The translations under genes were made by a program, and so were the position numbers. The notes beneath the pieces are model-generated. The model had not been told where the DNA came from and searched no databases. It saw only the letters and a list, made by a program, of their open reading frames with translations. 64,000 bases of DNA, taken from Candidatus Moraniibacteriota bacterium (lineage in GTDB: Bacteria; Patescibacteriota; Minisyncoccia; Moranbacterales; GWC2-37-73). Within the stretch, counting starts at the first letter, position 1; each line of letters begins with the position of its first letter. Location of the stretch: positions 33,221-97,220 of the forward strand of contig DAIUDF010000001.1 in the NCBI GenBank assembly GCA_036845785.1, written 5' to 3'. Positions 5,966-26,607 of this stretch are shown here, piece by piece.

Positions 5966-6214
5966 AATTTTTACAATAACTACTACATAAAAAATTATAA
6001 TAAACAAAATACAAAATGTTGAAGATACAATAACCAAGATAAAGTCTAAAGACACAAGATACAAGATACAAATCCCAAACAAACTTCAAATAACAAGTTA
6101 TTAATAACCAAAATTTGTAATTTTTGAATTTGATTATTGAATATTGTTTGTTTCTTGTTTCTTGGGACTTGTTTCTTGGCCGTGTTTCTTGGTTATTTAA
6201 AGTTGCTTTTTTGG

Positions 6215-6856: not shown

Positions 6857-6989
6857 TTTTTATAGTTAAAAATGCAAATATCAAAATGAAAAATTAACGA
6901 GTCGCTTTGCGATAACTAATTTAAATAGCCGCGGCAAAGTCACTCTTTAATTCTGATTTTTGATTTTTGATTTTTAAATTTTAAATTTT

Positions 6990-8261
6990 TTAGAATCCTT
7001 CGTAATCCCTCATCACTAGCTGGCTTTCGATTTGCTTGATTGTTTCAATAACAACTGAAACAACGATCAAGATGCTGGTGCCTCCGATTGTCAGAGATTG
7101 GATATTGGTCAAACCCTGGACAATAAAAGGCAAAACGGCAATCACTCCAAGAAAAAGAGCTCCGGAAAGAGTAATGCGGTTCATTATTTTATAAAGAAAA
7201 TCTGCAGTGGTTTTGCCAGGACGGATTCCCGGAATATAACCGCCTTGTTTTTGTAAATTTTCCGCGATCTTGTTGGGATCAAAAACCACAGCGGTATAGA
7301 AATAGGTGAACAGAACAACTAAGATGAAATACAAACTGCCGTAGAACCATTGGTTCTGAAAAAGATTGTTAACTACTGTGGCCATATGGGCAACTGTTTG
7401 ATTGCTGACACCCATCAGAAAACTGGCAATCATTCCCGGAAAAAGCATGATGGACATGGCAAAGATAATCGGAATAACTCCAGCCTGGTTGACTTTGAGC
7501 GGCAAGATTGATTGCGCTCCGCCATAGGTCATGTTGCCGCGGATTTTCTTGGCATATGAAACGGCTATTTTTCTTTGTCCTTCGGAAACCAAAACCACGC
7601 CAGCTATTGTCACCAGTGCCAAAACAAGAAGCGAGATGTACGTAAAAATTTGAGCTGAATCAAAAGTAGCCATGAGTTGCGAAATGCCTGATGGAAGACC
7701 GCTGACAATACCCGCGAAGATAATGAGCGAAACTCCGTTGCCTATTCCTTTTTCGGTAATAAGTTCGCCCAGCCACATCAAGAAAATAGTGCCGGCTGTT
7801 GCAACTATGACAATAACTGATATGTCAAAAATTGAGGACGTTTGCAAAACATTTTGTGAGCGCAAAAGAGCAATCATGCTGAAAGTCTGAAGAGCAGCCA
7901 ATGGCACAGTCAGCCATCTGGTTATCATATTAAATTTCTGCCGTCCAGCTTCGCCTTCTTCCTTGTAGAGCTGCTCGACCCGCGGAATAATCATGGTCAT
8001 CAGCTGCATGATAATGGATGATGTGATGTATGGTCCGACTCCGAGCATCACGATTGAAATGTTGGAAAGTCCGCCGCCGGAAAAAACGTTGAGCATTCCC
8101 AGAAACTGATTGCCTTCAAAAAGCCTTTTAAGCTGTTCCACGTCCACTCCCGGAACCGGAACATTGGCAGCAATCCTAAAAACAACCAAGATTCCTAATA
8201 TGAAAAGAATCTTGTTGCGTAGTTCGCGTACTTTAAAGATTTGTGTGAGTTTTTCTAACAT
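6990..8261 (-). CDS. secY: preprotein translocase subunit SecY
   Basis: 10-TM SecY signature and its position after rplO. Confidence 0.95.
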   Translation of the reverse strand: MLEKLTQIFKVRELRNKILFILGILVVFRIAANVPVPGVDVEQLKRLFEGNQFLGMLNVFSGGGLSNISIVMLGVGPYITSSIIMQLMTMIIPRVEQLYKEEGEAGRQKFNMITRWLTVPLAALQTFSMIALLRSQNVLQTSSIFDISVIVIVATAGTIFLMWLGELITEKGIGNGVSLIIFAGIVSGLPSGISQLMATFDSAQIFTYISLLVLALVTIAGVVLVSEGQRKIAVSYAKKIRGNMTYGGAQSILPLKVNQAGVIPIIFAMSIMLFPGMIASFLMGVSNQTVAHMATVVNNLFQNQWFYGSLYFILVVLFTYFYTAVVFDPNKIAENLQKQGGYIPGIRPGKTTADFLYKIMNRITLSGALFLGVIAVLPFIVQGLTNIQSLTIGGTSILIVVSVVIETIKQIESQLVMRDYEGF

Positions 8262-8290
8262 ATAAAGCTAACAAAGCTGAAAACTATAAG

Positions 8291-8725
8291 CTAGTTTATG
8301 GTTCCGCCTGCCTTAATGATAGCATCTTTGGCTGATTTTGAAAGAAGAATTTTTTTGTCCACGTTGAATTTTTTGGATATTTTTCCGGTTGCCAAAATTT
8401 TCACGCCATTTTTGGCTTCGGTTTTTTTCATTAAATTGGCCTTGACCAAAGTTTCGATTGAAATAGTTTCACCGTCTTTGAATTTCTTTTCCAGCGTTTC
8501 CAATTTCACCACGTTCTTTTTGGCATTAACCGATTTGAAGCCACGTACTTTTTTAAGACGCATAATCAAAGAAGAACGGCCGCCTTCAAACAACGGATCG
8601 ATTTTAGCTCCCGATCTGGCTTTTTGGCCTTTGTTGCCTTTGCCGGAATATGTTCCGCGTTTGCCACCTCGGCCAATCGTCTTTCTTTTCTCACGTTTTT
8701 TAGTTTTAAGTTCGTGTATTTGCAT
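8291..8725 (-). CDS. rplO: 50S ribosomal protein L15
   Basis: GRGGKRGTYSGKGNKGQKARSG signature. Confidence 0.95.
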   Translation of the reverse strand: MQIHELKTKKREKRKTIGRGGKRGTYSGKGNKGQKARSGAKIDPLFEGGRSSLIMRLKKVRGFKSVNAKKNVVKLETLEKKFKDGETISIETLVKANLMKKTEAKNGVKILATGKISKKFNVDKKILLSKSAKDAIIKAGGTIN

Positions 8726-8731
8726 ATAATT

Positions 8732-9199
8732 TTATTCTTCTTTAGCTTTCTTTACTCTTGGGGCTTTCAAGCTCTTTAAAGCGGCTACTGTTGCTCTGGC
8801 CACATTCAGTTTATTTGAAGTTCCCAAAGATTTTGAAACAATATCTTTAATCCCAGCCAAATCAACCACGGCCCGCACGGCTCCGCCGGCAATCACTCCG
8901 CGTCCTTCCTGCGCCGGCTTAAGAATAACTTTGGCGCTGCCTAACTTCATTTGAACATCATGAGAGATAGTGTTATCAGAAAGCTTTACTGTAATCATTG
9001 ATTTCTTGGCATCATTGAAGGCTTTTTGGATTGCATCGGAAACATCTGATCCTTTAGCTACGCCAACTCCGACTCTGCCTTTGCGGTCGCCGATTACCAA
9101 AGTGGCACGAAAACGAAAACGTCTTCCGCCTTTGACCACGCGGGTAACGCGAGCCAAATCCAAAAGTTTTTGGTCAAACTCCGGTTTCTCGCGATGCAT
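8732..9199 (-). CDS. rpsE: 30S ribosomal protein S5
   Basis: VTRVVKGGRRFRFRATLVIGD motif. Start set at MHREKPEF (cat at 9197-9199) so that it does not overlap the upstream repeat. Only 6 bp separate it from rplO, so rpmD (L30) is absent. Confidence 0.9.
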   Translation of the reverse strand: MHREKPEFDQKLLDLARVTRVVKGGRRFRFRATLVIGDRKGRVGVGVAKGSDVSDAIQKAFNDAKKSMITVKLSDNTISHDVQMKLGSAKVILKPAQEGRGVIAGGAVRAVVDLAGIKDIVSKSLGTSNKLNVARATVAALKSLKAPRVKKAKEE

Positions 9200-9230
9200 A
9201 TTTTTTCTGTTTGGTCGTTTATTCATATTG

Positions 9231-9322
9231 CTATCACAGAATGACACAGAAATCTACGGAATGACACAGAAAAATTCTGTGTATCTGTGTTTATTCTGTT
9301 TTCTTCCGTGTTTTATCTGTTT
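9231..9322. repeat. 92-bp intergenic repeat family R1 (CACAGAA element), 5 copies: 262-345, 9231-9322, 11041-11135, 12111-12205, 12571-12665
   Basis: Near-identical CACAGAATGACACAGAAAnTTACGGAATGACACAGAAAAATTCTGTGTATCTGTGTTTATTCTGTTTTCTTCTGTGTTAAATCTGTTT, containing the palindrome cacagaaaaattctgtg. Confidence 0.85.
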
Positions 9323-9671
9323 AAAATTTTAATCCGCCTTCTCTGGCGCCTTCAGCCAAAGCTTTTACTTTTCCGTGATATTTATAACCCGATCGATCAA
9401 ATTTCACAGTCTTGATTTTGGCTTCCAGACATTTTTTGGCCAGCAATTTTCCCATATCTTTAGCGCCTTCTACGGTATTTTTAGCTTTCTTTATTTCAGA
9501 AAGTTTAACTGAAGCCAAAGTTTCACCTTTCACGTCATCAATAATTTGCGCATAAATTCCACGCAAACTTTTGTGCACAGCCAAGCGCGGACAATTTGCA
9601 TCACCCGAAACTTTAGCGCGGATTCTTTTCTTGCGTCGTAATCTTGTTTTATTGTTATTTACTTTTGACAT
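9321..9671 (-). CDS. rplR: 50S ribosomal protein L18
   Basis: RLRRKKRIRAKVSG...PRLAVHKSLRGIYAQIIDD. Start at MSKVNN (cat at 9669-9671), with an alternative start at 9707. Confidence 0.9.
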   Translation of the reverse strand: MSKVNNNKTRLRRKKRIRAKVSGDANCPRLAVHKSLRGIYAQIIDDVKGETLASVKLSEIKKAKNTVEGAKDMGKLLAKKCLEAKIKTVKFDRSGYKYHGKVKALAEGAREGGLKF

Positions 9672-9709
9672 AATAGTTTCTAATAAAATTACTCTTTGAT
9701 TCGCCAAGG

Positions 9710-10246
9710 CTATTTAGCTGCCTTCTTTCCTTCTTTTCTGCGGACATGCTCGCCGACATATTTAAATCCTTTGCCTTTATACGGTTCAACTGGTTTTAGG
9801 GCTCTGACATTGGCGGCAAATTGCCCCACCTTGCATTTATCAACCCCGGAAATTGTCATGACGTTATTTTCAATAGTAACTTGCAAGTCTTCCGGCACAT
9901 CGACAACAACTGGATGAGAAAAACCCAGAGCTAGATTTATTTTCTTTCCGGCCACTGACATGCGAAAACCAACGCCATTAAGCTCTAATTGTTTTTGAAA
10001 ACCCTTAGCTACTCCTTCAATCATATTATTGATAATGCGAGTTGTCGTTCCCCAAACAGCTGGAGCATTCTTGCTTTTGCCCGTTTTTTCAACCAAAACT
10101 TCATTATCTTGAATTTTAACAACCACATCAAAATGATGCTCAAAAGTCATCGTTCCTTTGGCGCCTTTTATTGTTACTACATTTTTATCCGTTGTAACAG
10201 TTACTCCTTGCGGAATGCTTATTGGTTTTTTTCCTATCCTAGACAT
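9710..10246 (-). CDS. rplF: 50S ribosomal protein L6
   Basis: MSRIGKKPISIPQGVTV signature. Confidence 0.95.
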   Translation of the reverse strand: MSRIGKKPISIPQGVTVTTDKNVVTIKGAKGTMTFEHHFDVVVKIQDNEVLVEKTGKSKNAPAVWGTTTRIINNMIEGVAKGFQKQLELNGVGFRMSVAGKKINLALGFSHPVVVDVPEDLQVTIENNVMTISGVDKCKVGQFAANVRALKPVEPYKGKGFKYVGEHVRRKEGKKAAK

Positions 10247-10372
10247 AATAATTAATTCAAAATTTAAATCTCAAAATATAAACTTACGGAGTCGCTACGC
10301 GACATTTTTATAAACATGAGCGGAGCGAATTCCTAAATTTTGATTTTTTATTTTTGATTTTTTAATTTTACT

Positions 10373-10777
10373 CTACCAAACTTCGCAAATTATTTCCCCT
10401 CCGATTCCCATTTTTCTGGCTTCATCTGCCGGCATAATGCCTTTTGAAGTTGAAACTATGGAAATTCCATATCCATTCTTAACTCTCTTCAGATCAGTTT
10501 TCTTTGCATATATGCGCTGTCCTTGGCGGCTGATTCTTTTGATTTCTCTGATGGCCGGATTCTTTTCAGTATTGGAAACGACATCATATTTTAAAACTAT
10601 TTTTATTAAAGATATATTTCCTTCAGTTTCTTCGCTGACTGATTCAATAAAATTCCTTTGTTCTAAAATTTTGGCAATAGCCATTTTGAGACGCGAAAAC
10701 GGCACCAGCACTTCCTTGTGTCCGGCTCTTTGCGCGTTTCTAATTCTTGTAAGCATGTCTGCTATTGGATCTAACAT
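10373..10777 (-). CDS. rpsH: 30S ribosomal protein S8
   Basis: DPIADMLTRIRNA signature. Confidence 0.95.
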   Translation of the reverse strand: MLDPIADMLTRIRNAQRAGHKEVLVPFSRLKMAIAKILEQRNFIESVSEETEGNISLIKIVLKYDVVSNTEKNPAIREIKRISRQGQRIYAKKTDLKRVKNGYGISIVSTSKGIMPADEARKMGIGGEIICEVW

Positions 10778-10850
10778 ATCTTTTTTTAATTCAAAATTTA
10801 AAATTCAAAATTCAAAATTATAGTGTTGTTTCTGATTCTTTAATTTATTG

Positions 10851-11036
10851 CTACCAACTGCTCTTCTTCACTCCCGGCAACTCTCCTTTGCTGGCTAATT
10901 CCCTAAAACAGATTCTGCAAATATCGAAAGCACGAAGATACCCATGCTTTCTTCCGCAACGCCAACAGCGGCGCACAATACGGGTTGAAAATTTAGGTTT
11001 CTTTTCTGCTCTAGCTTTTGTAGATGTCTTTGCCAT
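10851..11036 (-). CDS. rpsZ: 30S ribosomal protein S14 type Z (zinc-binding)
   Basis: 61 aa starting at [16 protein letters not shown], with [38 protein letters not shown]. cat at 11034-11036. Confidence 0.9.
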
Positions 11037-11122
11037 TTTTGTTGTCACAGAATAACACAGAAACTTACGGAATGACACAGAAAAATTCTGTGTATCTGTG
11101 TTTATTCTGTTTTATTCCGTGT

Positions 11123-11671
11123 TTAATCTGTTTTAATTGGGAATCCTAATAATTTAAATAATTCAAAACCTTCTTCCTGTGATTTCGCGTCAGTCGAAAC
11201 TGTTATTTGCAGACCGAACACGTGTCTTGTTTTTTCTGGAGAAATTTCGGGAAAAATCAAATGTTCTTTAATGCCGATATTCATGTTTCCTCCTTTGTCT
11301 ATTGATTTTCTGTTAATTCCCTGAAAGTCTCTGGTTCTTGGCAATGTCGCGTTTATCAGACGATCAATAAATTGCCACATTCTTTTTCCTCTGAGTGTCA
11401 CCTTGACTCCGACTTCCATTCCTTCCCTAACTTTGAAACCGGAAATGGCTTTGCGAGCTTTGGTTTTTAACGGTTTTTGTCCTGTAATCGCAGCAATTGA
11501 ATTTATGACTTCTTCAACCTTGTCATTCTCCTTGGTAATTTTTCCAATTCCAACATTAACAACAGCCTTTTTGATTCGAGGCATCGCCATTGTGCTTTTA
11601 TATCCAAATTTCTTCTTCATTTCTGGAGTAGCTATTTTGGTATATTTTTCTTTTGTTGAAATTATATTCAT
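11123..11671 (-). CDS. rplE: 50S ribosomal protein L5
   Basis: L5 signature motifs. Its final codons overlap the end of a repeat copy. Confidence 0.95.
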   Translation of the reverse strand: MNIISTKEKYTKIATPEMKKKFGYKSTMAMPRIKKAVVNVGIGKITKENDKVEEVINSIAAITGQKPLKTKARKAISGFKVREGMEVGVKVTLRGKRMWQFIDRLINATLPRTRDFQGINRKSIDKGGNMNIGIKEHLIFPEISPEKTRHVFGLQITVSTDAKSQEEGFELFKLLGFPIKTD

Positions 11672-11685
11672 AATAATATTATTCT

Positions 11686-11800
11686 AATCTGCCCGCCTAG
11701 ACTCACGGAGACAATCGTTCATCGACGCGAGGCTGGCTAATTAATCCTGACCTACAAATTTGTTTTTACTGAATTCATTCGTAGATTTGAATCGTGTTTA
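11686..11800. repeat. repeat family R4, two copies (11686-11800 and 18333-18460), upstream of rplE and rplC
   Basis: ATCTGCCCGCCTmGACTCACGGAGACrATCGTTCATCGACGCGAGGCTGGCTAATTAAT followed by a ctacaaa...tttgtag hairpin. Confidence 0.8.
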
Positions 11801-12106
11801 TTAAAATTCTTTCTTGCACTTCTTGCACACGCGAACTTTTTTGCCATTGGCAAATGCATATCCAACCCGCGTAGGCTTTCCGCAGCCAGGACAGATAACC
11901 ATGGCATTGGAAACGCTAAACGCAGCCGGAACTTCAACACGCTGTCCTTTCTCTCCTTCCCGGCGGGGTTTTTTGTGCCTTTTTACTATATTCATCTTCT
12001 CGACAACAATTTTTCCTTCACTTGGAATAGTCCGGATGACTTTGCCTTCCTTTCCTTTGTCTTTGCCGGTAATTTTTTTAATTGTATCTCCTTTTTTAAT
12101 CCTCAT
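11801..12106 (-). CDS. rplX: 50S ribosomal protein L24 with C-terminal Cys4 zinc-ribbon-like extension
   Basis: KOW domain MRIKKGDTIKKITGKDKGKEG plus a C-terminal CPGCGKPT...CKKCKK tail. Confidence 0.9.
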   Translation of the reverse strand: MRIKKGDTIKKITGKDKGKEGKVIRTIPSEGKIVVEKMNIVKRHKKPRREGEKGQRVEVPAAFSVSNAMVICPGCGKPTRVGYAFANGKKVRVCKKCKKEF

Positions 12107-12202
12107 ATAACTATCACGGAATTACACAGAAACTTACGGAACGACACAGAAAAATTCTGTGTATCTGTGTTATTCTGTTTTCTTCTGTGTTAATTTTGTT
12201 TA

Positions 12203-12568
12203 TTACAATACTTCTGGTGCTAATGAAATTATTTTAGTATATCCTTTCTCTCTAAGCTCTCTGGTAACTGGTCCGAAAATTCTGGTTCCTTTTGGTTCTT
12301 TGCCATCCAAGATCACGGCTGCATTCTCATCGAATCGGATGTATGACCCATCTTTTCTCCGGAAAGATTTTTTCTGTCGGACAATCACTGCTCTGACCTT
12401 ATCTCCTTTTTTGATCATGCCTCTGGGTTCTGCCGATTTAACACTGCAAACAATAATATCCCCGATGGAAGCATAGCGTCTGCGGCTGCCTCCAAGAACC
12501 TTGAAGCATTCAATGGTTTTTGCTCCAGTGTTGTCAGCTGCTCTTAATCTTGTTTCTGCTTGAATCAT
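12203..12568 (-). CDS. rplN: 50S ribosomal protein L14
   Basis: [17 protein letters not shown] signature. Confidence 0.95.
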
Positions 12569-12662
12569 ATTGCTATCACAGAATTACACAGAAGCTTACG
12601 GAATGACACAGAAAAATTCTGTGTATCTGTGTTTATTCTGTTTTCTTCTGTGTTAAATCTGT

Positions 12663-12893
12663 TTATGCTATTTTATGGCTCTTTCCCTTGCTTATCGGCT
12701 TGCACTGCACAAACTCAACCGCATCTCCTTTTTTGAACTTGTTTTCAGCGTCATGTACTTTATATTTCTTGGTAGACAGATACTTTTTCAGATATTTCGG
12801 ATGCGTCTTAAAAGTTTGGACAGCCACTACAATTGTCTTGTCCATTTTATCACTGATAACTATTCCCTTCTTTTTGGCTAACTTTTTTGCCAT
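12663..12893 (-). CDS. rpsQ: 30S ribosomal protein S17
   Basis: GIVISDKMDKTIVVAV signature. Confidence 0.9.
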   Translation of the reverse strand: MAKKLAKKKGIVISDKMDKTIVVAVQTFKTHPKYLKKYLSTKKYKVHDAENKFKKGDAVEFVQCKPISKGKSHKIA

Positions 12894-13070
12894 AATTGTC
12901 TACGAGCGGAGCGAGTAGCTACAATTATGAGCATCCCGCACCAATTCTTTATTTAAACTTAATCTTATATCTTATTAAAGCCGCAGGCGAATTCCGTGAA
13001 AAGTTTTCAATCTTTTATTAAAAACTTTATTCGGAATTTGGTGCGGGACAACAATTTATTTTTAATCTAA
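12894..13070. repeat. about 165-bp intergenic element family R2 with 15-bp inverted repeats. Copies at 12894-13070, 14497-14665, 15612-15768 and 36697-36874, with divergent copies at 41640-41790 and 60725-60765
   Basis: GAGCGGAGCGAGTAGCTACAAAnnGAGCATCCCGCACCAATTC...CCGCAGGCGAATTCCGTG...TTCGGAATTGGTGCGGGAT. The IR atcccgcaccaattc/gaattggtgcgggat is perfect. Confidence 0.8.
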
Positions 13071-13262
13071 TTATTTCTGCATTTCTTTTATAATTGTTAA
13101 AATTTGCGCTATGTCTTTTTTGAGTGCCCGATATTGCCGATGATTCTTGAGCTGTTTGTTGGCAATATCAAACTTAAACCTGACAACCTGTGTTCTCTTT
13201 TCGTCTGCCAGCTTTTTCAGCTGTTCTATGTTCATATTTCTTAATTCTTGAATATTTGCCAT
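13071..13262 (-). CDS. rpmC: 50S ribosomal protein L29
   Basis: 63-aa helical protein (IQELRNMNIEQLKKL). Confidence 0.9.
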   Translation of the reverse strand: MANIQELRNMNIEQLKKLADEKRTQVVRFKFDIANKQLKNHRQYRALKKDIAQILTIIKEMQK

Positions 13263-13264
13263 AT

Positions 13265-13678
13265 CTATTTTTCCTTAACTACAAATTTACTCTTAACACA
13301 AAGCTTGTGTGAAGCCAAACGCATAGCTTCTCTGGCTACTGATTCGGCGATTCCATCCATTTCAAACAAAACTCTGCCTTGTTTTATTTTAGCTACAAAA
13401 TGATCCACGCTTCCTTTTCCTTTACCCATCGGAGTTTCGTCACCCTTTTTGGTCATTGGTTTGTCCGGGAAAATCCTGATCCAAATTTTTCCGCCACGTT
13501 TCACATATCTGGTCATCGCTCGACGAGCAGCTTCAATCTGGCGGGCAGAAATAAGTCCGGAAGTTGTCGCCTTCAAACCAAAACTGCCGAAACTGACAGT
13601 GTTTCCTTTTGTCGCCACTCCACGGATTGGTCCTCCGCGATGGATCTTTCTATGTTTTACTTTCTTTGGCATCAACAT
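13265..13678 (-). CDS. rplP: 50S ribosomal protein L16
   Basis: [15 protein letters not shown] signature. Confidence 0.95.
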
Positions 13679-13842
13679 ATGCGTTTCACTAAATTCAAAA
13701 TTTAAAATTCAAAGTTCAAAATTATGGAGCTCGCCTCGATTCGACAAGGTATGTCATCGAGTCGAAGCGGGTCGCTACGCGACATTTTTTATAAACATGA
13801 GCGAAGCGAATTCCTAAACTTTTAACTTTTCACTTTTAACTT
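13679..13842. repeat. intergenic repeat family R3 (AATTCAAAATTTAAAATTCAAAATT module plus GTCGCTACGCGAC hairpin plus GAGCGAAGCGAATTCCTAAA). Copies at 10247-10372, 13679-13842 and 17637-17752, with partial copies at 6857-6989, 10778-10850 and 36097-36228
   Basis: Shared blocks upstream of rplF, rplP, rplD, secY, rpsH and fusA. Confidence 0.7.
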
Positions 13843-14496
13843 TTAACTTTTAACTTCGTTAAATACTTCCCCTTTATAAATCCAAACCTTTACTCCAATA
13901 ACTCCGTAAGTGGTGTATGCCTTAGCTCTGGCAAAATCAATATCAGCTCGGAGGGTGTGAAGCGGTACTGTTCCTTTGGACAACCATTCGCGACGTGACA
14001 TTTCAGCGCCACCCAATCTTCCAGAAACCTCAACTTTAATTCCTTTAATATTTTTATTCTTCGCTGCCTGGTCTAAGGTTGATTTCAAAATTCTCCTGAA
14101 TGGCATTCTTTTTTCCAGCTGTTCTGCCACATTCTGGGCCACCAAACAAGCATTTTCTTCAAACTGTTTTATTTCCTGAGCTTCGATTTTCAGATCAATC
14201 TTCTTGCCGGCAAAAAACTTTTTCTTGATAATTTCCAACATGTCAGTGATTCCAGTGCCTCCTCTGCCGATCAAAACTCCCGGGCGTGATGTTTTAACAA
14301 TCAATTTCAGCGTATTGGCGTTGCCCTCAATATCCACATCAGCAATGGCTGCCGCCTTCCATTTTTTCATTACAAAATCACGGATTTGAACATCCTCTTT
14401 GAGCTTTTTGGAATAATTTTTGCCTCCAAACCATCTTGATTTCCAATTGGTGGTAATTCCGATTCGGAGTCCTGTTGGGTTTACTTTATGTCCCAT
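13843..14496 (-). CDS. rpsC: 30S ribosomal protein S3
   Basis: MGHKVNPTGLRIG start, KH and S3-C domains. Confidence 0.95.
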   Translation of the reverse strand: MGHKVNPTGLRIGITTNWKSRWFGGKNYSKKLKEDVQIRDFVMKKWKAAAIADVDIEGNANTLKLIVKTSRPGVLIGRGGTGITDMLEIIKKKFFAGKKIDLKIEAQEIKQFEENACLVAQNVAEQLEKRMPFRRILKSTLDQAAKNKNIKGIKVEVSGRLGGAEMSRREWLSKGTVPLHTLRADIDFARAKAYTTYGVIGVKVWIYKGEVFNEVKS

Positions 14497-14665
14497 GCAA
14501 TTTTTGTCTGCGAGCAAGGCGAGTAGCTACAAAAATTAGCATCCCGCACCAATTCGCAATATTAACTTTCTATTATTTCCGGTTAAGCCGCAGGCGAATT
14601 CCGTGAAAAGTTTTCAATCTTTTATTAAAAACTTTATTCGGAATTTGGTGCGGGATAACTTCTTA

Positions 14666-15235
14666 TTACGCTGACTTTCTTTGAAAAACTTTTTTCAAAA
14701 ATCCACTGTCTTGTCCTTTTTTAGCTGTTTCTTTCTGAACGGAAACTTTTTTAACCGGCGTTTTTTCAGCCGCTGTATCTTCTTTTTCCTTTTCCTCTTT
14801 TTCCATTTCTGCCATTGCTTCTTTCATCATCTTTTCTTTTTCTGCCTGGCGTTTGGCTTTTTCTTTTTCCAGTTCCTGCTTTGATTTTCTGTTTTTGCCT
14901 TCCACTCTTTCTGCGAGTTCCAATTTAATGTGGGATGTGCGTTTCAAAATCTGAGTCGCCCTGCCCTGGGCCCGCGGCAACCATCTTTTCAGCCTGGCTC
15001 CTTCGCCGACTAGGATGCTGCTTATATACAGATTGTCCCGGTCCAAACCGAAATTATTTTCTGCATTGGCCAAAGCGCTTTTCAGCAATTTTTCCAAAAT
15101 TCCGCTGGTTTTTTTCACCAAATGTTCGAGTTGGATAAAAGCATCATTAACATCCATGCCGACAATACTGTCCGTAACTAGACGCACCTTGCGGGGAGAC
15201 ATTCTTAAATTTTTGAGATTAGCAGTAACTTGCAT
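14666..15235 (-). CDS. rplV: 50S ribosomal protein L22 with long KE-rich C-terminal extension
   Basis: SPRKVRLV...NAENN core plus a 60-aa lysine/glutamate-rich tail. Confidence 0.9.
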   Translation of the reverse strand: MQVTANLKNLRMSPRKVRLVTDSIVGMDVNDAFIQLEHLVKKTSGILEKLLKSALANAENNFGLDRDNLYISSILVGEGARLKRWLPRAQGRATQILKRTSHIKLELAERVEGKNRKSKQELEKEKAKRQAEKEKMMKEAMAEMEKEEKEKEDTAAEKTPVKKVSVQKETAKKGQDSGFLKKVFQRKSA

Positions 15236-15260
15236 AAAATTATAATCAAACTACAACTTA

Positions 15261-15611
15261 TTATTTACCTCCATTTTTCTTATTACTATCTTCAGCTTTA
15301 GCCGCCTTGGCTGCATCCAAAGCCTTCTGTTTTTCCGCTATCTCGATTTCTTTCTGCATCTTGCCTCCGTGTCTTGTAAATTTGCGAGTTGGCGAAAATT
15401 CTCCCAGCCTGTGACCCACCATTTCTTCAGTTACATAAACATTCAAAAATCCTTTTCCATTATGCACGCCAAAAGTAAAACCGATCATTTCTGGTGAAAT
15501 TGTGCAGGCTCTTGACCAGGTTTTGATCACTCCTGCTCCCGGCTTGGCGTCAATGACTTTCTTGAGCACGCGCGGGTCTACATATGGTCCTTTCTTTAAA
15601 CTTCTGCTCAT
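15261..15611 (-). CDS. rpsS: 30S ribosomal protein S19
   Basis: SLKKGPYVD...HNGK...GHRLGEF signature. Confidence 0.95.
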
Positions 15612-15768
15612 TTGTCTGCGAGTGGAGCGAGTAGCTACAAATGAGCATCCCGCACCAATTCTTTAATTATTCTTTAAATTATATTATTACTGAGCCGTTA
15701 GGCGTTTCCGTGCACCAAGCTTTCTTTTGAAAAAATCTGTCTTCGGAATTGGTGCTGGGATTAATAAT

Positions 15769-16599
15769 CTATTTCTTAATTCTTCTTTTAACTATAAATT
15801 TATTACTATATCTTTTCTTCTTTCTGGTTTTCTTTCCTAATGCCGGCTTGCCCCATGGGGTTTTCGGATATTTAAGACCGATTCCTTGACAGCCTTCGCC
15901 GCCTCCATGCGGATGGTCAATCGGGTTCATAACCGTTCCACGCACTGCCGGTCTCTTGTTTTTCCATCTGTTTCTGCCAGCTTTGCCAATTCTTTCCGCA
16001 CTATGTTCAAAATTGCTGACTCGTCCGATTGTAGCATAACATTCTTCACTGGCCAATCTGATTTCGCCAGAAGACATTTTCAGCTGAGCCATCTTGTTGT
16101 CAATTGCCATAAGAGCAGCTCCGCTGCCGGCGCTTCTGATAATCTGTCCGCCCTTGCCTGGAAATAATTCAACATTGCAAATAATGGTTCCGTAAGGAAT
16201 ATTTTTAAGCAGCGTTCGGTTGCCTTCTTTGATAGGAGCTTTCGGGGAAGCCATGATTTCAACTCCCGCCTTCATTCCTTCCGAAGCCAAAATATATTTC
16301 TTATCTCCGTCTTTGTATTGAACCAAAGCAATCAAAGCGCTTCTGTTGGGATCTTTTTCAATCGCCACAATTTTTCCCGGAATATCAAATTTCTGTTGCT
16401 TGAAATCAACAAGTCTATAGCGCCTTTTGTGTCCGCCACCCTGATGTCTCACGGAAATTTTTCCATTGGATCTTCCCGCCTTATTTTTAAGAGGGGCCAA
16501 CAAAGATTTTTCCGGTTTTTTGTCCGTCAAATCATCCGGTTTTACAATCGACATGTTTCGCCTTCCGGCATTATTCTTTTTATAAACTTTAATTGCCAT
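15769..16599 (-). CDS. rplB: 50S ribosomal protein L2
   Basis: L2 signature including the HPHGGGEG motif. Confidence 0.95.
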   Translation of the reverse strand: MAIKVYKKNNAGRRNMSIVKPDDLTDKKPEKSLLAPLKNKAGRSNGKISVRHQGGGHKRRYRLVDFKQQKFDIPGKIVAIEKDPNRSALIALVQYKDGDKKYILASEGMKAGVEIMASPKAPIKEGNRTLLKNIPYGTIICNVELFPGKGGQIIRSAGSGAALMAIDNKMAQLKMSSGEIRLASEECYATIGRVSNFEHSAERIGKAGRNRWKNKRPAVRGTVMNPIDHPHGGGEGCQGIGLKYPKTPWGKPALGKKTRKKKRYSNKFIVKRRIKK

Positions 16600-16629
16600 A
16601 AATTTTCTGATTCGTAGTTTTGAATCGCA

Positions 16630-16998
16630 TTACGCTGTCTTAAAAAATTCTATCTTATCTCCTTTCTTAACCGTCACAGTTGCTTTTCTAACGGCTGGCT
16701 TTAAACTCAGATGCCGTCCGTAAGCCTTTTTCTTTGGCTGCAAATTCACTATTGAAACTTTTTCCACTTTTACTTTATAAATTCCCTCAACTGCTTTTTT
16801 CACTTCTTTTTTGTTTGCACTGTGCGTAATTCTGAAAGTGTATTTATTATCAGCCGAATCTCGATGCGTTTTTTCCGTAATCCAAGGCGCAACCAAAACA
16901 TTGCAAGCTATTTCAACATTATCAGCCGCTACAATAACTTCCGCCTTCTTGGCCGCAGTTTTTTTGGTAACTTTTTTTGTAGATTTTTCTTCAGTCAT
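16630..16998 (-). CDS. rplW: 50S ribosomal protein L23 with N-terminal extension
   Basis: Core VLVAPWITEK...KYTF plus a 28-aa basic N-terminal extension. Confidence 0.9.
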   Translation of the reverse strand: MTEEKSTKKVTKKTAAKKAEVIVAADNVEIACNVLVAPWITEKTHRDSADNKYTFRITHSANKKEVKKAVEGIYKVKVEKVSIVNLQPKKKAYGRHLSLKPAVRKATVTVKKGDKIEFFKTA

Positions 16999-17006
16999 AT
17001 TTCAGA

Positions 17007-17636
17007 TTATTTCTTAAATTTTTCTTCCAAAAATGCTATCGACTGCTTGGAGAGAATCAAATATTTATTATTCAGAATATCCATCACATTCAAATCCTTA
17101 ACTTCCGTGTTGGTCACATTTTTGACATTGCGGCTGGCCAGATTCATCTTTTTTTCCTCCTGAGAAAATGCCGCCAATGTCTTGCCTTCTATTTTCAAAT
17201 TATTCAAAACTTTCACAAATGATTTGGTCTTAGTTTCTTTCAGCAGCAGTGAATCAACAGCGATAAGCTGTCCGTTTTTCAGTTTTCCGCTAAGAGCAAT
17301 GCAGACTGCTTTTTGCTTCATTTTCTTGTTCAAATCTCTTTTGAAATTGCGATCGCTTTTAGGTCCAAAAGAAACACCTCCGCCTTTCATGACTGGATTT
17401 CTTTTCTGGCCTTGTCTGGCGCTGCCGGTTCCTTTTTGCCTGAATGGTTTTTTGCCGCTGCCAGCCACTTCACCTTTGCCTTTCACATGCGCAATCGGAT
17501 TTCGCTGATTGCCAGCCATAACCATGAAAACTTGTTTCACCAATTCATCATTAGCAGCTGCACCAAAAACAGCATCTGAAACTTTCAGATCTTCAATCTT
17601 TTTTCCTTCTTGATTATGTATTGCAATTACCGCCAT
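17007..17636 (-). CDS. rplD: 50S ribosomal protein L4
   Basis: L4 family signature and position between L23 and L3. Confidence 0.9.
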   Translation of the reverse strand: MAVIAIHNQEGKKIEDLKVSDAVFGAAANDELVKQVFMVMAGNQRNPIAHVKGKGEVAGSGKKPFRQKGTGSARQGQKRNPVMKGGGVSFGPKSDRNFKRDLNKKMKQKAVCIALSGKLKNGQLIAVDSLLLKETKTKSFVKVLNNLKIEGKTLAAFSQEEKKMNLASRNVKNVTNTEVKDLNVMDILNNKYLILSKQSIAFLEEKFKK

Positions 17637-17752
17637 AATATTAATTCAAAATGCAAAATTTAAAATTCAAAATTATAGAGTTTTGCTTCGCAAAATATTT
17701 TTTAAAAATATGAGCGAAGCGAATTCCTAAACTTTTAACTTTTCACTTTTAA

Positions 17753-18319
17753 CTATTTTACTGTCTGAACTTCCACGATTCTGCCGACAACTCCCGGCAC
17801 TCCGCCTTGCACTGCCAGAATATTCTTGGCTGAATCTATATAAACAACTTTCATATTTTTCACAGTTACTCTTTTGCCTCCCATGCGTCCAGCCATTTTC
17901 TTGCCCTTAATGACGTGCTGCGGTTGCTGTGCGCCAATTGATCCCGGCGCCCGAAGATCATGTTTGTGTCCATGGCTTTTTGGAGATCCCTTGAAACCAT
18001 GGCGTTTGACCACACCCTGATATCCCTTGGCTTTTCCGATTCCGCTGACTTTTACAATATCCCCTATTTGGAAATTTTCAACTGTAATTTTATCTCCCAC
18101 CGCCACCTTTGCTGCTTCATCCAAAGAAAATTCTTTCTTGTGGGAAACTTTTTTTGTCTTAGCAACCTTAAGCTGCAAAGCATTGTAGCCATTTTTTTCT
18201 TCAGTTCTGATATCAGAAACAACATTGGGTTCGCATTCAATCAGAGTCACGTTCAAAGCGCCACGTTCTTTGTCGTACAGTGTTGTCATTCCTAATTTTT
18301 TTCCGAGTATAAATTTCAT
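17753..18319 (-). CDS. rplC: 50S ribosomal protein L3
   Basis: MKFILGKKLGMTTLYD start and L3 signature. Confidence 0.95.
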   Translation of the reverse strand: MKFILGKKLGMTTLYDKERGALNVTLIECEPNVVSDIRTEEKNGYNALQLKVAKTKKVSHKKEFSLDEAAKVAVGDKITVENFQIGDIVKVSGIGKAKGYQGVVKRHGFKGSPKSHGHKHDLRAPGSIGAQQPQHVIKGKKMAGRMGGKRVTVKNMKVVYIDSAKNILAVQGGVPGVVGRIVEVQTVK

Positions 18320-18591
18320 AAAATATTATTCAAATCTGCCCGCCTCGACTCACGGAGACGATCGTTCATCGACGCGAGGCTGGCTAATTAATTCTAATCT
18401 ACAAACAATTCGTTGATTGGAATGATATTTGTAGATTGGGATAATTCTGGCAATAAAAATACTGGCCTCAGCCAGCATCATTCCGATCTATCGGAATTTA
18501 GCTAGTTGAGTATCCCCGAACTGCCGAGGACTTTAACTAGTAATATTCACATGTGCCCCATTTGCAGCGGGGCTCCGCCAAAAGCGGATAA

Positions 18592-18927
18592 CTACATTTT
18601 GATTTCAACATCGACTCCGGCCGGTAGGTCTAAACTGGTGAGATTCTCAATCGTTTTTGAATTCGGATTCCAAATATCAATAAGCCTCTTATGAATTCTC
18701 ATTTCATACTGGTCTCTGGAATTCTTATATACAAAGGTCGACTTATTGACAGTTACCTTGTGTATTTCTGTTGGAAGAGGAACCGGACCTGTGATTTGCG
18801 ATCCTGATCTTTCCGCAGTTTCCACAATTTTTTTGGCTGATTGGTCAATGACTTTGTTGTCATAGGCCTTGATCTTAATCCTGATCCTTGTGGACAATTG
18901 TTCTGAATCTGTTTTTTTCGCTGCCAT
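18592..18927 (-). CDS. rpsJ: 30S ribosomal protein S10
   Basis: IRIKIKAYD...GPVPLPT signature. Confidence 0.95.
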
Positions 18928-19022
18928 CTAATTTTTTAGTAACAAATTACTTTTAATTTAATATTGTTCGTTAGAACACAGGCAGACACAATTTTGTTTT
19001 GTGTCTGCTTAGTAAATTCGAA

Positions 19023-20216
19023 CTATTTGATGATTTTGGTGGCTGTTCCGGCTCCGACTGTTTTGCCTCCTTCGCGGATAGCGAAGCGCATTCCTTCTTC
19101 CATAGCTACCGGTGCAATCAATTTAATATTGATGTGCACAGTGTCTCCAGGCATAACCATTTCAGTTCCTTCTGGCAGAATAACTTCTCCGGTAACATCA
19201 GTTGTGCGGATATAGAACTGTGGTTTGTATCCTTTGAAGAAAGGAGTGTGTCTGCCGCCTTCTTCTTTGGTCAGAATATATATTTCACCTTCAAATTCAG
19301 TGTGAGGAGTGATTGAACCCGGTTTAGCCAAAACTTGTCCGCGCTCAACATCTTCTTTCTTAACACCGCGCAGCAGAAGTCCGGCATTGTCTCCAGCTTG
19401 TCCTTTGTCCAAAGATTTGTTGAACATTTCGATTCCGGTTACAACAGTCTTGGTAGTTGGCTTAAGACCAACAATTTCAACTTCTTCATTGATGCTGATG
19501 GTTCCGCGTTCAATTCTTCCGGTTACTACAGTTCCGCGGCCTTCAATTGAGAAAATATCTTCAATCGGCATCAAAAGAGGCTTGTCAGTGTCACGAACCG
19601 GTTCAGGAATTTTTGAGTCCAGTGCGGCAATCAAATCATAGATAGGTTTAGCATCAGCGTCTTCAGCTCCCTTAACTTCCAAAGCTTTGACAGCTGATCC
19701 ACGGATAACAGCGGCATTGTCGCCATCAAATTCATATTTGGAAAGCAGTTCGCGAACTTCTGTTTCAACCAAATCGATAAGTTCAGGATCATCAACCATG
19801 TCAACTTTGTTGATGAAAACAACGATCGCAGGCACGCCTACTTGTTTAGCCAAAAGGATGTGTTCGCGAGTCTGAGGCATAGGACCATCAGTTGCGCTCA
19901 CAACCAAAATTGCTCCGTCCATCTGAGCGGCGCCGGTAATCATGTTTTTGATGTAGTCAGCATGGCCAGGACAGTCAACATGAGCATAATGACGGGTGTC
20001 GGATTCATATTCGCAGTGTGAAGTTGCGATAGTGATTCCGCGTTCCTTTTCTTCTGGAGCGTTGTCGATTTCATTAACGCCTTTTTCCTTGGCAAAACCT
20101 TTAAGGCTCAGACAATGAAGAATAGCCGCGGTCAAAGTTGTTTTGCCGTGGTCAACATGTCCGATTGTGCCGACATTTACATGTGGCTTTGAACGTTCAA
20201 ATTTTTCTGCTGCCAT
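19023..20216 (-). CDS. tuf: elongation factor Tu
   Basis: [18 protein letters not shown] and NKVD motifs. Start at [12 protein letters not shown]. Confidence 0.95.
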
Positions 20217-20407
20217 ATTGATTTTTTTCGCGGCCAAAGGTTTTTTACTTTGGCACCACGCGATTAATTAAGATAATTTAATTATAAAATTATTGCATCT
20301 GTTTACTATACACTAAATTCCTTTTTCAGGCAAATTTAAAAAATCCGTCTGTGGAAAATTCAATACATGACTCATTCTACACGACCTATAAAATCTGTCA
20401 ACCCCGC

Positions 20408-20473
20408 ACTAACTTTAGGCAAGTGTACAACACTGGATTGCTTTCAGCAAGCCTAAAGTTAGTGCGGGGTCAA
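20408..20473. repeat. hairpin element family E with 12-bp terminal inverted repeats CCCCGCACTAAC/GTTAGTGCGGGG, two copies (20408-20473 and 59746-59810)
   Basis: The arms are identical and the interiors unrelated. One copy sits at the tuf-side edge of the island. Confidence 0.7.
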
Positions 20474-20612: not shown

Positions 20613-21032
20613 TTAGATTTTTTTTCTGAAGAAAATTGAAACAATGAAAATTAAAATGAAAAAGATCGAACCCATGACGCATGTCGGCAGGCCGAAGAAA
20701 TATGCGCTCGGTCCATTTTCAAAAAACAAGGACAATTCTCCCCAAGAAAAATAGCCGGCAAAAAGAACTCCCAAAAATGAAAACAAAAATAAAAGATTGG
20801 CCAAACATTTTGTCGCCTGTTCCTTGAAAAAAAGGACGACGGAAAAAATAAAAAGGAGGCAGAACATGACAAAGCCGTAGTAGCAGGCCGGAAAGCCCAG
20901 GAACAGCGGGCAAGTTTCCCCGAAAGCGCAGACAGATGAAAACATTTTGACTCCGCTCATATAGCCGGAAAACAATACTCCGCCCAGCGAAGCCAGCAAA
21001 AAGAAAATTTTAAAATTTTTGTATTTATCCAT
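20613..21032 (-). CDS. hypothetical polytopic membrane protein with internal 2-TM duplication
   Basis: Two repeated LGGVLFSGYMSG / LGVLFAGYFSWG modules, each followed by Cys residues. Start set at MDKYKNF (cat at 21030-21032). Confidence 0.5.
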   Translation of the reverse strand: MDKYKNFKIFFLLASLGGVLFSGYMSGVKMFSSVCAFGETCPLFLGFPACYYGFVMFCLLFIFSVVLFFKEQATKCLANLLFLFSFLGVLFAGYFSWGELSLFFENGPSAYFFGLPTCVMGSIFFILIFIVSIFFRKKI

Positions 21033-21093
21033 TTTATTAAATAAATAATTAATTAAGTAATTATTTCTGATCCGTTTTTCTTTTTTTACAATT

Positions 21094-21588
21094 TTATATT
21101 TCGGCAAAAAATATCATATAATTATGCCCGAATTTCTTGGCGCATTTCGGACAATAGGCATAGTGGATGTAATAATCCTTGGCCTTTTTCCCTGTCTCGG
21201 CCAGATATCCATCCATAACTTTGATAAATTTAGGAATATCATTATAGCCGCCATCAAAAACTCTGGAGATAAAATTTCCGGAAATCACAACGTTGTTTTC
21301 ATCCGGAACGTCTTTTTCCACCGCTACATATATCTCGCCCCTAAAAGGCGTCGGATCGCGGAACAATATCAGGGTGTCTTTTTTGTCCGGCGCGCCCGCC
21401 CCGACCTTTTCCACAGCCGTCCACATTCTGGTTATTTTTTTGCCGATCATCGGCGGAAAAGGGATATGGAAAAACTCCGGCATGGAATCTTTGATGAATT
21501 TTTTATTGTCCCAGCTCAATGTTTGCTTGTCCCATTTTTCTACACTAAATTCGGGACAGCATTCTTGTTTTTGATTTTCGTTGTTCAT
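21094..21588 (-). CDS. hypothetical protein
   Basis: 164-aa ORF. Its conserved GGCGGGGTAAGTAATTAAT leader motif is shared with two other island genes. No confident domain was recognised. Confidence 0.45.
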   Translation of the reverse strand: MNNENQKQECCPEFSVEKWDKQTLSWDNKKFIKDSMPEFFHIPFPPMIGKKITRMWTAVEKVGAGAPDKKDTLILFRDPTPFRGEIYVAVEKDVPDENNVVISGNFISRVFDGGYNDIPKFIKVMDGYLAETGKKAKDYYIHYAYCPKCAKKFGHNYMIFFAEI

Positions 21589-21686
21589 AGTTTTATTAAT
21601 TACGTAATTAATTACTTACCCCGTCAATTATATCTGATCAGAAAATGATTATCTTTATTTTTCCTTTGCTCGATTTTATTTTTTAT

Positions 21687-22964: not shown

Positions 22965-23014
22965 AAAAAATTTACTGTCTGTATTAATTACTTACTCCGC
23001 CAATCAGATTAATT

Positions 23015-23066: not shown

Positions 23067-23101
23067 ACATCCCCCTTCGGCATAAATTCAGGGGGATGTA
23101 A

Positions 23102-26591: not shown

Positions 26592-26607
26592 GTAATTAAT
26601 TACGTAA

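Follow-up and report, generated by a model that had tools for sequence, protein, structure and literature searches.

A structured repeat at ribosomal-protein gene starts

What is a repeated, highly structured sequence doing immediately in front of ribosomal-protein genes of a Candidatus Moraniibacteriota bacterium? The question is raised by a 64-kb stretch of its genome (hereafter the window: positions 33,221 to 97,220 of contig DAIUDF010000001.1, assembly GCA_036845785.1), whose genes lie nearly all on the minus strand and include the str and S10/spc ribosomal-protein operons. The host DNA is AT-rich (about 38% GC), and near-identical contigs, the longest of 118-124 kb, are present in JGI and ENA metagenome assemblies. 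A sequence-only reading of the window had proposed that a long-stem element recurs at gene starts, and this is borne out: the 19-mer GAGCGGAGCGAGTAGCTAC, with up to three mismatches, matches the window four times, on the plus strand at 12904, 14512, 15620 and 36707, and has no match in 100 shuffled controls. The four sites exactly adjoin the minus-strand start codons of rpsQ, rpsC, rpsS and rpsG, where there is no Shine-Dalgarno (SD) sequence. Full copies of the element are about 160 nt long (the mRNA sense being the minus strand) and occupy the spacers of 157-178 nt before these four genes, whose products are supported by Pfam as S17, S3, S19 and S7. A covariance model built from 17 copies gives the four window copies scores of 131-170 bits.

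These copies belong to what is well supported as a widespread family of lineage-specific non-coding repeats at operon junctions of Moranbacteria and related Parcubacteria, apparently undescribed so far. The reading preferred here, to which we would give an even chance on the strength of covariation and modelled folds, is that the element resembles a transposable element of the miniature inverted-repeat kind (MITE), lies between cistrons, and is transcribed as a leader in which competing helices would gate the start codon.

Anatomy and fold of the element

On the mRNA strand the element is built from four helices, P1 to P4 (Table 1). P1, a clamp helix of 14-16 bp formed by (A/G)UCCCGCACCAAAUUCC and GAAUUGGUGCGGGAU, closes a three-way junction that contains P2, P3 and an A/U-rich linker. 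The inverted repeat of the sequence-only reading does exist, but the "perfect 15 bp" ascribed to it does not: the arms are perfect without gaps over 11-12 nt (e.g. TCCCGCACCAA/TTGGTGCGGGA) and reach about 16 bp with a 1-nt bulge. P2 rises from a conserved UUCCG/CGGAA base to a variable top, the GCC-loop-GGC mini-hairpin P3 has in some relatives a loop grown into GC-rich hairpins, and the linker (25-35 nt, 67-94% A+U) is predicted to be unstructured. Directly 3' of P1 stands P4, the conserved core of the element, a 45-nt hairpin (GCUCAUUUUUGU-AG-CUAC-UC-GC-NNN-GC-UC-GYAG-ACAAAAAUGGCA) in which an A-U-rich lower stem of 9-12 bp, an AG bulge, a 4-bp CUAC/GYAG helix, a UC/UC internal loop and a GC/GC clip with a 3-nt loop are stacked. 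A MITE with terminal inverted repeats (TIRs) was one option of the sequence-only reading; in the window family P1 is internal and is not the TIR of the whole unit, the conserved 45-nt start-codon hairpin lying outside it, and in some metagenome relatives two inverted P4-like modules do bound the unit. A CCGCAGGCGAATTCCGTG block said to be shared by all copies is exact in copies 1 and 2, copies 3 and 4 having variants of it. The structure was drawn manually, a 1-nt register shift in P1 of the raw MAFFT alignment having defeated RNAalifold.

The 3' arm of the P4 lower stem, ACAAAAAUGGCA, contains or abuts the start codon: it either provides AUG GCA (the proteins beginning M-A-...) or stops one base inside the gene's own AUG. 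In copy 1 the rpsQ AUG (12893-12891) is paired within this arm, with a predicted unpaired probability of 0.00. The embedded AUG of copy 2 is mutated to AUU, with a compensating CAU-to-AAU change, and the rpsC AUG (14496-14494) begins at the element's final base. In copy 3 AUG AGC of rpsS (15611-15606) is fully paired with GCUCAU, and the P1 arms of copy 4 differ by a compensated CAC-to-UCC/GUG-to-GGA change. The ORF (open reading frame) calls for the window are misled at copy 2, where a false TTG start stretches rpsC (13843-14517, minus strand) into the element.

Two divergent copies had also been proposed. The one upstream of the DUF378 gene is recognized by the covariance model (Table 1) and has another hairpin in place of P4, followed by a normal GGAGG and, 13 nt later, the AUG. 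The one upstream of rpsU shrinks to a 25-nt palindrome of the clamp arms, which is related to the element and is no copy of it.

Distribution, start-codon register and gene set

The search pattern found 29 real loci in about 22 genomes, and 115 metagenome stretches; the covariance model yielded 42 genome copies and 100 metagenome copies, 142 in all, from Moranbacteria and Parcubacteria. At the search-pattern loci the relatives all come from Candidatus Moranbacteria/Moraniibacteriota and other Parcubacteria metagenome-assembled genomes. Much of the apparent invariance of the family is produced by the exact-match patterns with which copies were collected.

Enrichment at gene starts, proposed from four copies, is extreme across the family. 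An ORF starts 2-11 nt past the hairpin core in 95 of 124 non-redundant copies, most often at +4 (50 copies) or +9 (31 copies) relative to the GAC. In the first class the gene starts at the element's own AUG; in the second it starts five bases later (AUGGC-AUG) and takes the element's last A as its own first base. There the embedded AUG does not lie in frame, and in about half of these copies it has been changed to UUG, AUU, UUU or AAG; every such change is matched by compensation in the 5' arm (CAU to CAA, AAU or AAA). The loss of the out-of-frame AUG together with compensation suggests that this AUG is read by ribosomes and that the stem is under selection.

All informative copies have the same sense as the downstream gene. 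A co-directional ORF ends at most 23 nt before P1 in 26 of the 42 genome copies, its stop codon being 5-23 nt away in most, and a few copies lie just behind TATAAT-like boxes. Pfam matches to 96 downstream ORFs are led by L14 and S14 (six each), L27 and L11 (five each) and SSB (four), followed by S19, NusG and HypC (three each) and by S7, L16, S8, S17, S5, L33, L3, DnaK, MreB, NusB and GroEL (two each). At least 39 of the 96 encode ribosomal proteins; the other ORFs, too, are mostly internal genes of tight operons. In other Moranbacteria the element precedes rplN, rplX, rplP, rplC, rplO, rplK, rpmA, rpmG, nusG, nusB, ssb, dnaK, groEL, mreB, hypC and others, and at least 12 ribosomal-protein families, including those of rplC, rpsH, rplO and rplP, are preceded by it. 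Its positions differ among eight related operons (Table 1).

Covariation and strand

Covariation across the copies, which the sequence-only reading had left to be checked, is strong, and selection on the element's helices is well supported. In the genome set 86% of cells are paired and both-side changes occur in 23 of 36 pairs, with none of 500 shuffles reaching the observed value and slid controls at 33-48%. In the metagenome set 90% of cells are paired and all 36 pairs have both-side changes (0 of 500 shuffles; slid controls 34-46%); compensated cells number 399, where 100 would be expected. For both sets the alignments had been fitted to the model, and since repeat copies are related, independent events are far fewer than the cells counted. 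The P4 lower stem, 97.5% paired in the metagenome set, changes in step with the start codon and the codon after it (CAUAAUUGU/ACAAUUAUG, CAAUUUUGU/ACAAAAUUG, GUUCAU/AUGAAC), tracking the second codon from AUGAGC-GCUCAU at rpsS of the window to AUGAAC-GUUCAU and AUGCC-GGC(U)AU elsewhere.

The strand on which the helices act is less clearly marked. Among the outer P1 pairs, read as mRNA, 16 are U-G and none is C-A, and another repeat family of the window builds its long stem largely from G-U pairs on the mRNA strand. The P4 apex disagrees with P1, so that an assignment of strand from wobble pairs was dropped. The counts rest on few mutational events, and the metagenome pattern itself constrained both varying positions of the P4 apex.

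Proposed gating of the start codon by competing helices

In the preferred reading the element is co-transcribed in the polycistronic mRNA, where its compact fold would draw the upstream stop and downstream start codons together. In the ground state P1 and P4 would both be formed and the AUG buried in P4. An alternative helix may form between the P1 3' strand (GGUGCGGG) and the P4 apex (CUCGCUCC); if the P1 5' strand were held open, most probably by a ribosome terminating on the upstream cistron, the alternative helix would form, P4 would break and the AUG would be exposed. The element would preserve or enforce translational coupling over a long spacer, and this would account for its being tolerated by a streamlined genome in the operons under greatest constraint.

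The P1 3' strand (UUGGUGCGGG) is indeed complementary to the P4 apex (CUCGCUCCG), and the two covary (GAAGCGGG with CUCGCUUC, UGUGCGGG with CUCGCACA, UAUGCGGG with CUCGCAUA). Their complementarity score is 116, against 102.5 +/- 3.2 for shuffled pairings, none of 2000 shuffles reaching 116. In the free element the AUG of embedded-start copies has a mean predicted unpaired probability of 0.04; blocking the first 20 nt raises this to 0.24, and the minimum free energy (MFE) fold moves to the alternative helix in most copies.

Several observations weigh against this reading. The switch is a construct of thermodynamic prediction and of covariation among related, non-independent repeat copies, and the predicted opening of the AUG, at 0.24, is partial. 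Promoter-adjacent copies (L013, L029 and L030) have no upstream ribosome, and insertion into short spacers would by itself bring stop codons close. In the P4 apical stem an invariant CUAC faces GUAG, GCAG or AUAG, a variation that produces A-C and C-A mismatches in the mRNA and G-U pairs in its complement. The antisense P4 has one uniform fold in all four window copies, whereas the sense P4 lacks the upper stem in three of the four. Such wobble on the non-mRNA strand fits a constraint at the level of DNA or of single-stranded DNA during transposition better than one on mRNA. Mobility of a MITE-like kind also lacks some of its usual marks: no consistent flanking direct repeat (target-site duplication) surrounds the 42 genome copies; no transposase partner was seen, whole genomes not having been scanned for a Y1 transposase nor TnpA examined; and no empty site was found, the window's 177-nt rpmC-rpsQ spacing being shared by all seven contigs displayed for this species, of 18 with identical RpsQ.

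A bolder version of the preferred reading, perhaps true but rather unlikely, would make the element a mobile RNA device, a cassette between cistrons that spreads by itself and carries both a start codon and a ribosome-operated switch between clamp helix and hairpin apex. Translation of the downstream cistron would then require that of the upstream one, and the cassette would provide portable coupling or SD-independent, structure-directed initiation for operons of candidate-phyla-radiation bacteria. If true, this would be the first transposable element whose RNA acts as a translation-initiation module.

Mobility and the case for selfish DNA

Spread of the element within genomes is well supported. 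Copies 1 and 2 are 95% identical across an 83-nt variable core, and the related genome L020, whose coding DNA is 75-87% identical to that of the window, has this core before rpsN, a junction at which the window has a different repeat. In metagenome relatives P4 is joined to many different upstream hairpins, the upstream domain being interchangeable and ranging from a 25-nt hairpin up to a 118-nt junction. Metagenomes also contain symmetric MITE-like units (Table 1) in which a central hairpin stands between an inverted P4-like module and P4. In six of these the TAA of a 108-120-codon ORF abuts the left module and the right module holds the AUG, the unit extending from stop to start codon; together with the ...GGCA/TG class, these TAA-abutting units suggest insertion into overlapping TAATG stop/start junctions. 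Each P4 module has its own internally compensated stem, unmatched to the other end of the symmetric unit. An internal GC(U)CAU can pair both with the AUGGC at the 3' terminus and with another AUGGC immediately 5' of P1 (13-15 of 21 copies); this 5' AUGGC runs on into a conserved (A)GGWAUGGCU in one subfamily and is absent from the other. REP/REPIN sequences mobilized by RAYT are GC-rich palindromes of 20-40 nt with a conserved GTAG; GUAG/CUAC motifs occur here too, as do minimal P1-arm palindromes, the latter at 60736-60760 of the window and at 966-988 of L006.

The P1 arm motif recurs in a palindromic family of about 64 nt with CCCCGCACTAA arms (CCCCGCACTAAC.../...GTTAGTGCGGGG; Table 1). One window member (20403-20468) lies upstream of tuf, where it is flanked by TTGA and divides a TTGACA box, and in L009 and L030 a relative sits within the P4 loop with CTCGC repeats on either side.

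The strongest competitor is a purely selfish DNA element (a MITE, a REPIN or an IS200/IS605-derived PATE) whose RNA has no role beyond harmlessness, an explanation that is unlikely. Its helices would be (sub)terminal repeats and single-stranded transposition intermediates, and its orientation and start adjacency would result from target specificity and purifying selection; the target may be TAA^TG or ATGGC junctions recognized through the internal GCUCAU pairing, which recalls the pairing of guide and cleavage site in IS200/IS605 elements. PATEs derived from these have subterminal hairpins, lack TIRs and duplications, and insert 3' of a fixed tetra- or pentanucleotide that an internal guide recognizes by pairing. 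Turnover of positions between genomes, near-identical variable cores inside one genome, the symmetric TIR-like forms, the insertion of CCCCGCACTAA-arm palindromes with short duplications (TTGA, CTCGC) and the G-U-compatible variation of the P4 apex on the non-mRNA strand are all as a selfish element would have them. Yet the missing target-site duplications and transposase, with the limit already given, count against selfish DNA as well. Recognition of double-stranded DNA does not need P4 modules that are compensated internally, and P1 has U-G pairs on the sense strand only. The structures of P2 and P3 are kept despite unrelated sequences and expansions, and the purging of the out-of-frame AUG with compensation implies that the AUG is read and the stem important.

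Regulatory leaders, processing signals and other candidates

The sequence-only reading had offered a regulatory or processing RNA and a MITE as alternatives, and both remain live, with evidence on each side. A dedicated cis-regulatory leader, which looks distinctly improbable, would be recognized by a trans factor (a global RNA-binding protein, an initiation factor or the ribosome itself, or a small ligand that the three-way junction senses); it would tune abundant SD-less housekeeping proteins and would have spread by conferring that regulation. The P4 apex, AG bulge and UC/UC loop are invariant or nearly so even in copies collected without constraining them, and junction nucleotides are conserved (CGGAAUCGCC...GGCUUAG); much of the apparent invariance, however, comes from the exact-match collecting patterns, and an interchangeable upstream domain leaves no conserved aptamer. 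The proportion of ribosomal proteins downstream, the remainder being largely abundant proteins, would suit a regulon, but the set fits internal cistrons of tight operons better, and positions differ between species. Genes preceded by the element are SD-less while other genes of the window have GGAGG, strongly so before the DUF378 gene (41571), rpsU (60600) and a gene near 34017; SD sequences are lacking at all ribosomal-protein operon genes of the window (6000-20300, 34000-37300), with or without a repeat upstream.

An intercistronic RNA-processing signal, cut in its helices by RNase III or in its A/U strand by an enzyme of the RNase Y/E type, has a slimmer prospect still. It would cut the operon mRNA into pieces, each having a hairpin at its 5' end or a near-leaderless AUG, and a stabilizing 3' hairpin, consistent with a repeated hairpin family placed exactly between cistrons, a P4 of about 18 bp with internal loops, a P1 that the 5' AUGGCU extension, where present, can lengthen to about 25 bp, the single-stranded linker of high A+U content, and an AUG fixed 4 or 9 nt from the hairpin core. 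Processing, however, does not need the covarying complementarity of P1 arm and P4 apex, and copies directly behind promoters have nothing upstream to separate. Last, the autoregulatory or processing leader specific to small-subunit genes that the sequence-only reading had suggested, all four full window copies preceding rps genes, can scarcely be right: large-subunit and non-ribosomal genes are preceded at least as often across genomes, rpsN, rpsE, rpsH and rpsJ of the window have other leaders, and the variation of position between related genomes rules out a gene-specific autoregulatory leader.

Other candidates were rejected. The only match above gathering threshold between Rfam and the window is a tRNA at 44899, and searches over the copies at E <= 10 gave only miRNA/snoRNA noise; no curated model thus supports a known self-cleaving ribozyme or other Rfam family. 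A riboswitch is disfavoured by the interchangeable upstream domain and heterogeneous gene set as well as by the lack of an Rfam match, and a tRNA-like reading of ...CCCGCACCA by the wrong order of its arms. Leader peptides were discarded because ORFs from the 5' AUGGCU vary in frame and sequence among copies, and in-frame read-through from the 5' to the 3' AUG because length variants break the frame. The element is not a remnant SD with an old start codon: unrelated genes share an AGG only 1-2 nt from their AUG, which marks it as part of the element. Nor does anti-SD complementarity apply, the mRNA strand having CUCC-like and not GGAG-like sequence. No recurrent sigma-70-like site was found inside copies on the mRNA strand (one copy has a weak antisense TTGTCT-N18-TACAAT), and phage, plasmid and viral collections have no match to the element.

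Coordinates, accompanying repeats and neighbouring genes

Table 1. Positions of the element, its parts and relatives, and of accompanying repeats (MFE, minimum free energy; window, the 64-kb stretch; L numbers, related loci and metagenome stretches)
Feature	Sequence	Position	Strand	Remarks
Element copy 1	window	12888-13051	-	rpmC-to-rpsQ spacer; covariance-model score 170.3 bits; MFE -54.8 kcal/mol, z = -5.76 against dinucleotide shuffles
P4 hairpin, copy 1	window	12888-12932	-	arms CATAATTGT/ACAATTATG; -15.2 kcal/mol
P1 3' arm, copy 1	window	12933-12948	-	GAAUUGGUGCGGGAU; also complementary to P4 apex CUCGCUCCG
Part of A/U-rich linker between P3 and P1 3' arm, copy 1	window	12949-12969	-	MFE about 0
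P3 mini-hairpin, copy 1	window	12970-12978	-	GCC-UGC-GGC; 98-99% paired across copies
P2 hairpin, copy 1	window	12979-13033	-	UUCCG...CGGAA base, variable top; -14.9 kcal/mol, z about -5
P1 5' arm, copy 1	window	13034-13050	-	GUCCCGCACCAAAUUCC; 21 nt past rpmC stop codon
Element copy 2	window	14496-14658	-	rplV-to-rpsC spacer; 161.6 bits; P4 at 14496-14540
Element copy 3	window	15605-15763	-	rplB-to-rpsS spacer; 131.5 bits; P4 at 15605-15646
Element copy 4	window	36691-36854	-	rpsL-to-rpsG spacer; 134.1 bits; P4 at 36691-36735; rpsG AUG at 36696-36694
Divergent copy	window	41585-41739	-	upstream of DUF378 gene; 72.6 bits; P1, P2 and P3 retained
25-nt palindrome of both P1-arm sequences	window	60736-60760		ATCCCGTGCCAA/TTGGTGCGGGAT; upstream of promoter-like TTGACT-N16-TATAAT before rpsU
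Symmetric unit	L046	2050-2231		
Symmetric unit	L085	531-720		
Symmetric unit	L074	8760-8892		
Symmetric unit	L116			
Symmetric unit	L057	680-813		
Element-preceded S10/spc/str genes	window			rpsG, rpsS, rpsC, rpsQ
Element-preceded genes	L001			rplX, rpsN
Element-preceded genes	L008			rplN, rpsN, rpsH, rplO
Element-preceded genes	L011			rplN
Element-preceded genes	L018			rplP, rplN
Element-preceded genes	L020			rpsN
Element-preceded genes	L023			rplC
Element-preceded genes	L026			rpsE
CCCCGCACTAA-arm palindromes	window	20403-20468, 59739-59802		
CCCCGCACTAA-arm palindrome	L011	156-218		
Second repeat family	window	9227-9320, 11037-11122, 12107-12202, 12569-12662; also 252-343	-	spacers before rpsE, rpsN, rplX, rplN
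Third repeat family	window	10247-10372, 13679-13842, 17637-17752; partial 10778-10850, 6857-6989, 36097-36228	-	before rplF, rplP, rplD
Fourth repeat family	window	11672-11800, 18320-18405	-	before rplE, rplC
GAGCGRAGCGA sites	window	4841, 10318, 12904, 13799, 15620, 17712, 31959, 32776, 36707		up to one mismatch
71-nt repeat	window	30695-30765, 31912-31982, 32729-32799, 33250-33320		within the 20613-33828 block
Further hairpin family	L020	1910-2060, 2553-2700, 5624-5675, 1-100	-	before rpsE, rplO, rplX, adk

Several other repeat families share the ribosomal-protein operons with the element. The second (ACAGAAUAAACACAGAUACACAGAAUUUUUCUGUGU...UUCUGUGUAAUUCUGUGAUAGCAAU-AUG) is a single long hairpin of -25 to -31 kcal/mol that begins just past the stop codon and ends about 9 nt short of the AUG, without an SD site. 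The third has a AAAAGUUAAAAGU-type 5' arm and a AAUUUUGAAUUUUAAAUUUUG 3' arm joined mainly by G-U pairs, giving a stem on the mRNA strand only, which surrounds GGAAUUCGCUUCGCUCAUG and small GC hairpins. Copies of the fourth (GCCAGCCUCGCGUCGAUGAACGAUYGUCUCCGUGAGUCKAGGCGGGC) are 93% identical across 84 nt and have weak matches in L020 and L021. The motif GAGCGRAGCGA (UCGCUYCGCUC on the other strand) has nine sites in the window against about one expected, includes a GCGNAGC mini-hairpin, and is common to several otherwise unrelated repeat families. L020 has a further family, a long hairpin (UCUCUACGAACUACGAAU...AUUCGUAGUUCGUAGAGA) that ends 5 nt before the AUG, at junctions occupied in the window by short spacers or by other families. 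Antisense ORFs of 76-97 aa overlie rpsN, rpsQ and repeats (window 10765-11055 and 12688-12918, plus strand), and one such ORF is annotated as a gene in a public assembly (L031 4839-5129). The rplV gene (14666-15235, minus strand) encodes 189 aa with a 70-aa Lys/Glu-rich C-terminal extension past the L22 domain.

The usual str operon order is broken by a block of about 13 kb (window 20613-33828) that parts fusA from tuf. Its GC content falls to 29-35%, its products include a GmrSD-HNH nuclease, an EcoRI-type adenine methyltransferase, and Fic, DUF3800, GNAT and HD proteins, and it is probably a defence or mobile island. The 71-nt repeat within it has CAGCCCGCCCC and a hairpin UUAAAUA-UCGCUUCGC-UAUUUAA. 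A 425-aa protein encoded at 21687-22964 (minus strand) has a Pfam match to mTERF (PF02536, E = 1.1e-17), with repeats that cover residues 201-384. Proteins with this helical-repeat fold bind nucleic acids and are characteristic of organelles but uncommon among bacteria. The co-occurrence of this protein with the element was considered and rejected, a homologue being absent from the other fetched loci.

Comparison with known systems

Full-text literature searches on repeats of Moranbacteria or of the candidate phyla radiation (CPR), on MITEs and on ribosomal leaders returned nothing relevant. The closest described kinds, compared by description and not by sequence, are the REP2 repeats of Neisseria together with the IR elements of Borrelia; Neisseria and CPR sequences would not be expected to be homologous. 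REP2 and Borrelia IR-A/IR-B are intergenic repeats of 120-180 bp without a transposase, which lie in one orientation immediately upstream of many different ORFs and provide stem-loops, 5' untranslated sequence and an ATG fused to the downstream frame; REP2 also has a promoter and ribosome-binding site and marks a co-regulated virulence regulon (Delihas 2011, PMC3184786). The element likewise precedes diverse ORFs and supplies their ATG, as its own AUG or, one base inside its end, as the first base of the gene's. It differs from REP2 in having no SD or consistent sigma-70-like promoter, in lying inside operons with its AUG in a conserved hairpin, in its clamp helix and three-way junction, and in occurring in CPR bacteria.

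Bacterial MITEs such as Correia/CREE of Neisseria and ERIC/IRU of enterobacteria have TIRs at both ends and target-site duplications, and occur in either orientation. The element is like them short, non-coding, multi-copy, variable in position and, by prediction, folded into long RNA hairpins, which in MITEs are co-transcribed with their neighbours; it differs in its strict orientation, its included start codon, its internal clamp repeat and the absence of any duplication found. The MIRUs of mycobacteria (Supply et al. 1997) are reportedly tandem-capable units of 40-100 bp with small ORFs. They share with the element a place in intercistronic operon spacers, a single orientation and ends that overlap flanking stop and start codons, but lack its highly structured hairpin modules.

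In ermC-type attenuation, segments 1:2 and 3:4 pair in competition with 2:3, and occupation of segment 1 frees the initiation region in segment 4. The proposed four-segment logic is similar, and the initiation codon in an A-U-rich stem resembles that of an RNA thermometer; unlike ermC, the element has no conserved leader peptide or SD, is multi-copy and mobile, and would be triggered by the terminating upstream ribosome. Similar hairpins with internal loops lie between phage T7 early genes as RNase III signals, just upstream of the next start. Here the likeness is one of hairpin shape and placement, and the element differs by including the start codon itself. By analogy the element may be said to resemble ermC-type attenuators, thermometers that sequester a ribosome-binding site and T7 RNase III sites, without belonging to any of them.

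Significance

Automatic gene calling will put the starts of element-preceded genes in the wrong place, and the covariance model could serve as seed for an Rfam family. The genomes of CPR bacteria (Patescibacteria) count among the most streamlined known, and here the most conserved of their operons are broken at nearly every junction by structured repeats of 90-180 nt, among which the element combines unusually clean compensatory evolution and a fixed start-codon register with turnover between species. If it is merely selfish, a mobile element colonizes essential operons by bringing with it the stop-to-start signals that it displaces. If the RNA switch is real, it would offer a testable model of translation start and coupling in a lineage whose ribosomal-protein genes lack SD sequences.

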